Below the pieces are notes generated by a model. That model was not told the DNA's origin. It saw only the letters and a program-made list of their open reading frames with translations, and ran no database searches. From Promethearchaeota archaeon (lineage in GTDB: Archaea; Asgardarchaeota; Odinarchaeia; Odinarchaeales; JBHLKK01): a stretch of 32,000 nucleotides of DNA. Position numbers and translations under genes: made by a program. Location of the stretch: contig JBHLPL010000009.1 of assembly GCA_048939465.1 (NCBI GenBank), forward strand, positions 1-32,000, written 5' to 3'. Shown one piece after another: positions 1,350 to 7,808 of this stretch (positions are counted from its first letter, which is position 1; every line of letters begins with the position of its first letter).

Positions 1350-1691
1350 TTTTTGAATGCGTCTTATTTTTTCAAGAATATCCAGCAGTTCGTTCAGAAG
1401 TTTTGCAATCGAGCGGAGCTTTTCAGGATCTTTCTCCTCCTCCATTCTTTTATTGAGATCCTGAAGTTTGGAGGACACGATTTCATCCATCCGAGGGAGC
1501 AGAACGCTTGAAACAACAGAGCTGCTTTCCTCTCCCTCTTTTACGATCAGCACCTTTTTGTCACAAGTAGGACAGTAAATATCTCCGTGTACTTTGAATA
1601 AAGGAGAAGCGCATACAGGGCAAGAATTCGAGAGCATAGTTGCGCCAGACAGAAGTAATTCTACCATCTTGTTGGTTTTCTTCTTTTTCAT
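1344..1691 (-). CDS. UPF0148 / Sjogren autoantigen-1 family zinc-ribbon protein
   Basis: LLSGATMLSNSCPVCASPLFK...IYCPTC matches the family pattern (two CxxC pairs followed by a helical C-terminus). Confidence 0.85.
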   Translation of the reverse strand: MKKKKTNKMVELLLSGATMLSNSCPVCASPLFKVHGDIYCPTCDKKVLIVKEGEESSSVVSSVLLPRMDEIVSSKLQDLNKRMEEEKDPEKLRSIAKLLNELLDILEKIRRIQKS

Positions 1692-1773
1692 TTCTCGTCA
1701 CCATATAAGAACGTTTAAGAATATCTTTAATTACTTTTTCATACAACTCAAATTTAAGCGAGGTCGTATAACA

Positions 1774-2077
1774 ATGGATGAGGAAGCGGACGAGAAGGTA
1801 AATCAAGCAATGACAGTATTAGGCATGATAGCTGAAGATACCTCTGTCCCCAGAAACATCAGACGTGCAGCAAATGAGGCTACTGATGCACTTCAAGACT
1901 CCAAGATTGAAAGTATGGCTGTGAGGGCATCAAATGCGATATCGATTCTCGACGAGGTATCTCAAGATCCAATCCGTTAAGAGTGTCCTCTTGGCGGGGA
2001 TAAACTGCCCCTTACACGCCAGAACAAAAATATGGAATGTAGTGAGCATACTTGAAACCGTCAAAGACTATGAATAG
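1774..2077 (+). CDS. UPF0147 family protein, two exons (1774-1972 and 2004-2077), 90 aa after splicing
   Basis: Exon 1 gives ...DTSVPRNIRRAA...RASNAISILDEVSQDP. The conserved tail NCPLHARTKIWNVVSILETVKDYE* continues in another frame after a 31-nt insert. Confidence 0.92.
1973..2003 (+). other. BHB intron (31 nt) in UPF0147 mRNA
   Basis: Central helix AUCC(1967-70)/GGAU(1998-2001), 3-nt bulges AAU(1971-73) and AAA(2002-04), intron stem CCGUUAAGAG/CUCUUGGCGG (10 bp including 2 G-U) with a UGUC loop. Cutting 2 nt into each bulge restores CCA-AAC-UGC (P-N-C). Confidence 0.9.
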
Positions 2078-6688: not shown

Positions 6689-6991
6689 ATGACAGAGAAC
6701 ACAATCTTTGTTGGAAACAAACCAGTTATGAACTATGTTTTGGCATGCGTAACTCAGCTGAATCAAACCGACATGGAAGAAATAGTCATTAAAGCAAGAG
6801 GACGGGCGATTAGTCGCGCAGTTGATGTTGCAGAGATACTCAGAAATCGATTCATGACCAATGTTGACGTAAAAGACATAAAGATCAGCACTGAGCAAAT
6901 TAATACCGCAGAGGGCGGAACAGCAAACGTCAGTGCAGTCGAGATCTCGCTGGGTATGAAAGCTGCCAAACCTAGTAAAAAGAAGAAGTAG
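6689..6991 (+). CDS. albA: DNA/RNA-binding protein Alba
   Basis: [38 protein letters not shown]; extra basic C-terminal tail. Confidence 0.96.
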
Positions 6992-7017
6992 AAATACCTT
7001 CTAAGGCAAAGGGAACT

Positions 7018-7036
7018 CTTTTTTCTTTTTCTTTTT
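7018..7036 (+). terminator. Oligo-T archaeal terminator after alba
   Basis: CTTTTTTCTTTTTCTTTTT-type run about 25 nt after the stop, between convergent genes. Confidence 0.6.
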
Positions 7037-7082
7037 AGTTGTATGACCTTTCAACACAAATATGAAGACGATGGGAATTTTG

Positions 7083-7643
7083 TTACCCAAGAACGTATCC
7101 AATTTGTTTGACAAGTTCACGACGTTCTTTGCGTTGATCGTCTGTTTCTATTCTTTTCACAGATTGTCCGTCCACAAAGCCCAATACTGCACGGCCTTCC
7201 ACACCATTGATGCCCACTTCTGCGACTATTACCTTGCAGCGATTCGCAGTTGCGCCGTAGACTATCGCGACATGTGGTAATAGCTTGATACTATTTAGAA
7301 CATTAATCGGCCATGCTCCCTGAATCATGATTACAAATACATGACTTGCCCCGATATTTCTGCAGTTTTCAGCCGTCAATTGCTCTAGTTCGGGGTCGTT
7401 ACTATTGACACGGGTAAGTCTGGGATCTGCTTCATTCATTGCACAAGCAAACTTCACATCACCAGTAGTTACTCCCGGAACTGACATCTGAATGGTCCGG
7501 AAGAGGTCGTCAACAAGTTTTACTGAGAAATTGGGGTCCCTCTACCTCTTGTATTGATCTTAAAGGGATTTCCCCTGTCCGACAATTATCTGATGCTCGG
7601 GTTCCTTCTTAATGTCTATTGAAATGAGTTTTATTTCGCTCAA
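7083..7643 (-). CDS. Adenosine-specific kinase family (DUF355/PAE2307-like), two exons (7643-7570 and 7530-7083), 173 aa after splicing
   Basis: TTG at 7643 with SD GGAGG 7 nt upstream gives MSEIKLISIDIKKEPEHQIIVGQG, then NFSVKLVDDLF...NEADPRLTRV..ND..L...IGASHVFVI...WPINVLN...ATAN...GFVDG...ERRELVKQIGY. Confidence 0.9.
7531..7569 (-). other. BHB intron (39 nt) in DUF355 mRNA
   Basis: Minus strand: helix GGGG/CCCC, bulges AAA and AAU, intron stem UCCCUUUA/UAGAGGGA (8 bp). Two in-frame stops (TAA, TAG) lie inside. Splicing gives GGG-AAU-UUC (G-N-F). Confidence 0.9.
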
Positions 7644-7808
7644 CTCTTGACCTCCTTTTCAATATCATGGATTAAGACATTATTTCAATCAGACTGTAAT
7701 AAATCCTTTTGAAATCCTTTTTATCTAGGTAAACCTTTTTCCCTAATATTCAGATGAATGAGGAGACTGATTGCATTCATAAGTGCCAAAAAAGAATATA
7801 AGAAGGAA

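Follow-up and report, generated by a model that had tools for sequence, protein, structure and literature searches.

A probable bulge-helix-bulge intron in the messenger RNA of a PF04008 gene, retained across the sampled Odinarchaeia

We analysed a stretch of 32,000 nucleotides (nt) from an Odinarchaeia genome (assembly GCA_048939465.1, contig JBHLPL010000009.1, positions 1 to 32,000; hereafter the window), whose minus strand carries at 7643-7083 a gene of the PF04008 family. We propose that a 39-nt archaeal bulge-helix-bulge (BHB) intron interrupts this gene and would be removed from the mRNA by the tRNA endonuclease EndA and the ligase RtcB, and we give this reading a probability of about 0.88. 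Judged by its profile match, the gene encodes a PF04008 family protein, for which ‘adenosine-specific kinase’ (DUF355) is the database annotation name and the activity is predicted; for brevity we call it the kinase gene. The insert is a hairpin of the shape seen in introns of tRNAs, and the mRNA must almost certainly be cut and rejoined if the full-length protein is to be made. The source genome is a metagenome-assembled genome of 1.96 Mb in 152 contigs, estimated to be 91% complete, and the window lies on its contig C139.

The first-pass annotation of the window had described a TTG start behind an ideal GGAGG Shine-Dalgarno (SD) sequence, a peptide ending in IIVGQG, 39 nt containing TAA and TAG, and then NFSVKLVDDLF. 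Reading the minus strand bears this out, with GGAGG at 7655-7651, 7 nt upstream of the TTG at 7643-7641 (Table 1). From this start the frame reads M/L-SEIKLISIDIKKEPEHQIIVGQG, then KSL and TAA (7562-7560), and a second in-frame stop, TAG, follows at 7544-7542, hence translation of the unspliced mRNA from the TTG would end as a 27-amino-acid (aa) peptide. The same frame from 7532 reads NFSVKLVDDLFRTIQ-MSVPG..., i.e. NFSVKLVDDLFRTIQMSVPG..., through to the stop at 7085-7083. Excising 7569-7531 yields CAG GGG AAT TTC, as the annotation had stated for GGG-AAT-TTC, and the joined ends ...CAG GGG AA + U UUC UCA... read Q-G-N-F-S, giving a 173-aa protein with the motif GQGNF. The genome contains the 39-nt sequence just once, which rules out a mobile repeat; a group I or II intron and an intein are likewise ruled out, by the size of the insert and its in-frame stops.

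Removal of the insert restores the complete family domain. The spliced protein covers positions 1-153 of the 154 of PF04008 with 156 bits (cut-off 25), compared with 34-153 and 136 bits for the 134-aa open reading frame (ORF) from ATG 7487 to the stop at 7083, which is what a gene caller would report; the joined translation had an X at the junction in this profile search. The solved members 2d16, 1wvq, 2ekm, 1rlh and 1vgg match the spliced protein with E values from 2e-49 to 7e-26, and the best of them, PH1918 (PDB 2d16, E = 2e-49), reads IIGQGNFSIFTVDDL (IIGQGNFS) straight through the junction, with N at the AAU codon that splicing would make. Among 34 aligned full-length relatives, G22 and F26 never vary, and conservation reaches at least 90% at Q23 and at N25, the residue encoded by the junction codon. 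An AlphaFold (AF2) model built from the alignment reached a predicted local distance difference test score (pLDDT) of 90.9 and placed strands beta1 (residues 4-10) and beta2 (17-23) in the part encoded by exon 1; a single-sequence AF2 model was uninformative (pLDDT 42.7), and the alignment-based model was used instead. The internal ATG corresponds to residue 40, and according to the model the unspliced ORF would lack both strands and the first helix. The annotation was thus right that the 134-aa ORF is truncated, and the loss is larger than the single N-terminal strand it had named.

These data bear on the possibility that the RNA is expressed without splicing, as a truncated protein of 134 aa from the internal start, with the 27-codon upstream ORF serving as a leader or for nothing. 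Truncated ORFs of this kind, 132-144 aa long and labelled ‘adenosine-specific kinase, partial’, are indeed what gene callers and public annotation give. However, the internal start is not conserved, as the spread of 132-144 aa indicates, and ATG 7487 has no SD sequence, whereas exon 1 matches the N-terminus of the family residue by residue and is under purifying selection; in the model, the truncated product would be missing two core strands and a helix. We therefore consider unspliced expression very unlikely.

The interruption is shared by the whole class as sampled. In all seven Odinarchaeia species genomes the PF04008 match is broken near profile position 18 or reads through two stops, while 23 PF04008 matches from other Asgard families span positions 1-154 without stops. 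The annotation had proposed a comparison with intron-less orthologs, where a contiguous GQGNF was expected. When the spliced protein was searched with tblastn, 46 of 46 loci from other Asgard archaea, Thermoproteota and DPANN aligned continuously through the site, and these uninterrupted homologues read G-x-x-[N/H]-F there. Moreover, in a collection of 5.8 billion proteins gene calls for the 11 closest relatives (57-99% identity) are without exception 132-144 aa long, one bearing the name ‘partial’, and all more distant matches are 161-172 aa long. The contigs of five close relatives gave five further inserts, adjoining Alba and the por operon, so that the set used for comparison holds 12 distinct sequences, seven from species genomes and five metagenome variants. 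Public DNA runs with the locus are mangrove and sediment metagenomes; contigs from four of them over 7400-7700 show the insert together with a coexisting sister-species variant, and the intron-less joint is absent from these contigs, which by their nature cannot prove its absence. A metagenome scan with the intron-flanking pattern returned 73 matches, none of which adjoins a PF04008 gene and all of which are due to chance.

Comparison of the 12 inserts reveals one architecture. Their lengths are 25, 26, 27, 30, 30, 31, 32, 34, 34, 34, 39 and 46 nt, and each lies 3′ of CAGGGGAA and 5′ of UUU(C/U)UC, at the same codon (12/12). The length is not a multiple of three in eight of them, and the two exons of these genes are thus in different frames of the DNA. 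In all 12, GGGG is followed by an AA(A/U) bulge, a 7-11-bp stem enclosing a loop of 3-17 nt, C(C/U)CC and an A(A/U)U bulge; the GGGG is invariant, and the 3′ strand is CUCC in two variants, which makes a G-U pair. A low-coverage contig of 547 bp (L145:1-547) has CCCA, giving a G-A mismatch at the outer pair with the register of the 3′ bulge kept, which may reflect either an error of sequencing or a relaxation that is tolerated. The architecture persists while the stem sequences are nearly all different between genera, e.g. UCCCUUUA, CUUCUACUCUC, UUUUAACCCG and UCUUAAUU. Because MAFFT alignment lost the stem register between genera, stems were compared anchored at the bulges. Across the first seven stem positions all 84 of 84 cells form standard pairs, with compensatory changes at seven of seven positions, a count that exceeds the number of independent events because the 12 inserts are related. 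When the 3′ partner was slid by 1-3 nt just 30-64% of cells were paired, and column shuffles gave a mean of 61 paired cells, none of 2000 reaching 84. Despite the kinship among the inserts, the pattern of covariation is unambiguous.

The flanking exons are conserved with the same regularity. Exon 1 comprises 24 codons in 11 of 11 relatives with complete upstream sequence, a start codon and an SD-like GGAGG, GGTG or GAGG at the same distance are present in 11 of 11 with upstream sequence, and exon 2 comprises 148 codons in 11 of 11 in which it is complete. Between genera, non-synonymous divergence of exon 1 (pN ∼0.13–0.21) is far below synonymous divergence (pS ∼0.7–1.0), similar to exon 2, and by this measure exon 1 is under purifying selection. 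A decaying pseudogene with a small insertion, or an assembly artefact, would account for the in-frame stops and for an ORF that is broken in every annotation. Such an origin is scarcely credible, since 12 independent assemblies, which come from different habitats, share the interrupted site with the exons intact and pN/pS low, the insert recurs in contigs of four public DNA runs, and the gene is the sole PF04008 copy of the genome.

The same comparison speaks to programmed translational bypassing, as in T4 gene 60, in which the ribosome would skip the hairpin on an unspliced RNA. A stop codon and a stable hairpin do stand directly after the break, and in Odinarchaeum, where exon 1 ends in ...AAU UUU UAA and exon 2 starts with UUC, a hop of the Phe-tRNA from UUU to UUC would produce the same protein. 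In the window genome and its genus, however, matching take-off and landing codons are lacking (GGG AAA UCC; landing would precede AAU), the gap varies from 25 to 46 nt, and bypassing needs no 4-bp helix with two 3-nt bulges in register, yet these are kept in 12 of 12. Bypassing is therefore highly improbable, and we return to excision of a BHB intron from the RNA.

In archaeal tRNA introns the BHB has a bulge 3′ of each strand of a 4-bp helix, and each bulge is cut 3′ of its second nucleotide. The window element has this topology. Its GGGG/CCCC helix, AAA and AAU bulges and 8-bp stem, all of which the first-pass annotation had listed, hold when the sequence is read and paired, and of these the central helix, the 5′ bulge and the 8-bp stem are also present in the minimum-free-energy fold that RNAfold gives for the region. 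Marck and Grosjean reportedly defined in 2003 the forms of the BHB in tRNA and rRNA, namely hBHBh′ and the relaxed HBh′; from its pairing, the motif in the window is assigned to the relaxed HBh′ form, relaxed on the 3′ side. In the genus Odinarchaeum the outer helix between the exons pairs at seven of eight positions, in the order A-U, a conserved C-U mismatch and then up to six more pairs, and it is weaker in the genus of the window.

Besides the relatedness of the 12 inserts, several observations weigh against the proposed splicing. On the 3′ side RNAfold draws a 2 × 2 internal loop in place of a clean bulge of 3 nt, and in fold energy the single sequence does not surpass its shuffles (z = −0.88). 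The outer helix h of the window is weak (A-U, C-U, A-C, G-U, G-C), and just one pair, A7576-U7529, closes its 3′ bulge towards the exons; because the 3′ site is relaxed, an enzyme of broad specificity would be needed. Moreover, no RNA runs (0) were listed with the locus, whether the query was 2.3 kb long or the single gene. As the z-score is unremarkable, we do not take the single-sequence structure as evidence, and the comparative data carry the case.

Enzymes that could perform the reaction are encoded in the genome, which has two EndA paralogues, each with an N-terminal and a catalytic domain, and two RtcB genes. The two EndA paralogues are consistent with a heterotetrameric endonuclease. 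In Asgard archaea including Odinarchaeota LCB_4, EndA is an (alpha-beta)2 enzyme with an L1 loop and a broad substrate range (PMC5829648), and by transfer from that work the EndA of the present genome most likely has the same assembly and loop. One of the RtcB genes (contig C31, 2961-5708, minus strand; L062/L064) is a single open frame of 973 aa in which the Pfam match is split (1-57 and 45-426) by ∼1.4 kb; the second, on contig C78, is uninterrupted. To judge from the sequence, the split looks like an intein insertion. With introns allowed, ARAGORN found only 25 tRNA genes in the whole genome, of which 19 contain an intron and none lies in the window. Non-canonical introns probably conceal many tRNA genes; Asgard tRNA genes are intron-rich and hard to detect (PMC11291895; bioRxiv 10.64898/2026.10.13.758758), and the ARAGORN count fits.

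We infer cleavage, ligation and the enzymes responsible for them from these sequences, and the pathway would run as follows. The kinase gene would be transcribed into a single pre-mRNA, in which GGGG and CCCC would pair as a 4-bp helix with the 8-bp hairpin stacked on it, offering the AAA and AAU bulges to the endonuclease. EndA, most likely as the two-paralogue (alpha-beta)2 enzyme, would cut on the 3′ side of A7570 and of A7531, each time 2 nt into the bulge. RtcB would then ligate the 2′,3′-cyclic phosphate end of exon 1 to the 5′-OH end of exon 2, and the intron would be released, probably in circular form. Ligation would make the codon AA|U (Asn), and a ribosome starting at the TTG would produce the 173-aa protein with GQGNF. 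An agent other than EndA and RtcB, such as another nuclease or a self-cleaving element, could be imagined to excise the insert, given that the 3′ site is relaxed in the window genome and that EndA cleavage is a prediction. Against such an agent, what is conserved is exactly what makes an RNA an EndA substrate, the window has no match to any Rfam family, ribozymes among them, and 25–46 nt is too small for group I or II introns; we regard it as improbable in the extreme. The coordinates of the elements on which EndA and RtcB are proposed to act, and of the EndA genes, are collected in Table 1.

Table 1. Coordinates of the kinase gene, its proposed intron and the two EndA genes (window positions unless a locus is given)
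Feature	Position	Strand	Remark
Shine-Dalgarno sequence GGAGG	7651..7655	-	7 nt 5′ of the start codon; from sequence
Exon 1: TTG start (7643-7641), 24 codons (MSEIKLISIDIKKEPEHQIIVGQG) and AA of the Asn junction codon	7570..7643	-	
Proposed intron, 39 nt	7531..7569	-	In-frame TAA 7562-7560 and TAG 7544-7542
Exon 2: T of the Asn codon, 148 codons (FSVKLVDDLF...GYVLG) and TAA stop	7083..7530	-	Stop 7085-7083
Central 4-bp helix H, 5′ strand GGGG	7572..7575	-	Pairs with CCCC 7533-7536
Central helix H, 3′ strand CCCC	7533..7536	-	
5′ bulge AAA	7569..7571	-	Predicted cut 7570/7569; BHB geometry, position fixed by reading frame
3′ bulge AAU	7530..7532	-	Predicted cut 7531/7530; BHB geometry and reading frame
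Intron stem h′, 5′ strand UCCCUUUA	7561..7568	-	Pairs with 7537-7544
Intron stem h′, 3′ strand UAGAGGGA	7537..7544	-	8 bp including one G-U
Intron loop, 16 nt	7545..7560	-	
EndA paralogue (PF02778 + PF01974), 191 aa	31349..31924	-	Presumed cutting enzyme, 24 kb from the intron
Second EndA paralogue (PF02778 + PF01974), 204 aa	L060:1168-1779, contig C90	+	

The neighbourhood of the gene is stable, the order kinase gene, convergent Alba and por operon being kept in all Odinarchaeia-type contigs that were fetched (window 6689-7643; L138-L144). The nearest full-length relatives of the kinase are from Thermococcales, with 55–59% identity, and most Asgard homologues have 33–51%; the closer relationship to Thermococcales than to most Asgard homologues hints, at the level of sequence identity, at an old transfer.

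Other genes of the genome are interrupted in a similar manner. The annotation had counted the kinase insert as the second of its kind, the first being that of the UPF0147 gene 5.5 kb away (1594-2077, plus strand). That claim is supported as well, as a 31-nt BHB intron lies at 1973-2003, with an AUCC/GGAU helix, AAU and AAA bulges and a 10-bp stem, the Pfam match, which spans 2-61 of 81 (74 bits) in the split gene, reaches 2-81 of 81 (113 bits) once the exons are joined, and the gene is interrupted at the same profile position in seven of seven class genomes. Outside the window, a class-III aminotransferase carries a 30-nt BHB insert (L159:481-510; C4 11883-11912, minus strand) at DVDGN|KYID and an amidohydrolase one of 27 nt (L165:481-510; C118 3264-3293, minus strand) at HTHAAM|TLLRG, each with a single Pfam domain across the joint. 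In kae1/tsaD a 25-nt BHB intron (L172:1477-1501, minus strand) has an 8-bp exon helix, and its removal restores GPGL|GPCLR; in pyrG removal of a 31-nt insert after codon 15 (L170:2297-2327, minus strand) restores SGI|GKG; and ahcY lies in several pieces with stops (L167/L169, contig C118 315-951). Frame-breaking inserts of BHB type are thus counted in at least seven protein genes, i.e. those for the PF04008 kinase, UPF0147, the aminotransferase, the amidohydrolase, kae1, pyrG and ahcY. By comparison, cbf5 (TruB_N) is uninterrupted in seven of seven class genomes.

A genome-wide scan for BHB motifs with ORF restoration gave no excess over frame-shifted splice-site controls, whether the minimum stem was set at 6 or at 4 bp, and its power was low because the aminotransferase, amidohydrolase and kinase introns sit within a background of intergenic hairpins. 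The kae1 intron was missed by the scan because its central helix has two G-U pairs. When 10 scan candidates were examined by Pfam, two had a domain spanning the junction and were real, five were adjacent genes and three had no family. Taken together, the interrupted genes of this genome suggest that splicing of mRNAs by the tRNA machinery is widespread in it.

The kinase and UPF0147 inserts are retained by every sampled member of the Odinarchaeia, and we lean, at odds slightly better than even, towards mRNA splicing by tRNA endonuclease and ligase being a routine and ancient step of gene expression in this Asgard lineage. If so, deep retention would point to a function, for example a coupling of the expression of nucleotide and methyl-cycle enzymes to EndA/RtcB capacity; alternatively, it would mean that there is no route for intron loss. 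The comparative proof is unusually clean, since presence throughout the class and covariation coincide. Public annotations of every Odinarchaeia genome call the kinase truncated or ‘partial’, which distorts gene content and pseudogene counts, and with the other interrupted genes the reach of protein-enzyme-based mRNA splicing in Asgard archaea becomes a testable question. In the searchable literature we found no work that treats mRNA introns of Asgard archaea, the Odinarchaeia included, and introns go unmentioned in the paper that describes the closed Odinarchaeum chromosome.

Several known systems resemble the one proposed here. The BHB intron in the 5′ untranslated region (5′-UTR) of HVO_1309 of Haloferax volcanii (PMC7714728) also makes an mRNA a substrate of EndA; that intron lies in an untranslated leader and modulates expression, whereas the kinase intron breaks the frame, and its removal would be obligatory for the full-length protein. 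As in eukaryotic HAC1/XBP1, an endonuclease would cut two sites of a structured mRNA, in their case two stem-loops, a tRNA-type ligase or RtcB rejoins the ends, and the frame changes without a spliceosome. Unlike the kinase intron, HAC1/XBP1 involves the endonuclease Ire1, a different RNA motif and regulation by stress, and no homology is implied. A structural parallel is given by the BHB introns of tRNA and rRNA, with which the kinase intron shares the 4-bp helix, the two 3-nt bulges on opposite strands, the h′ hairpin, the predicted cuts 2 nt into the bulges and the presumed enzymes EndA and RtcB. It differs from them in that the host is an mRNA whose exon half consists of codons (GGN CAG GGG AA / U UUC UCN), no tRNA body aids recognition, and the outer helix h has a conserved C-U mismatch.

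An mRNA intron of this kind is already known from cbf5, the intron in Crenarchaeota reportedly going back to work of Watanabe in 2002, Yoshinari in 2006 and Yokobori in 2009. In the Desulfurococcales and Sulfolobales the cbf5 pre-mRNA has a BHB intron in its coding region which is cut by hetero-oligomeric EndA (PMC2738675). A report of 2020 named cbf5 as the only coding-region case to date and added the 5′-UTR intron of Haloferax (PMC7714728). Like the cbf5 intron, the kinase intron would be a short BHB intron of a coding region in a host with a hetero-oligomeric EndA, its removal restores a conserved protein, annotation misreads the unspliced gene as split or truncated, and the distribution of the intron is specific to a clade. 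Unlike cbf5, whose splicing has been shown experimentally, the kinase is one where we infer it, and the gene (PF04008) and the phylum (Asgard archaea, Odinarchaeia) differ, with the kinase intron present in every class member examined. What is new here is thus the different gene, the different phylum and the retention across a whole class; on the sequence comparison, the kinase intron shares its mechanism with the cbf5 intron and is not the same intron.
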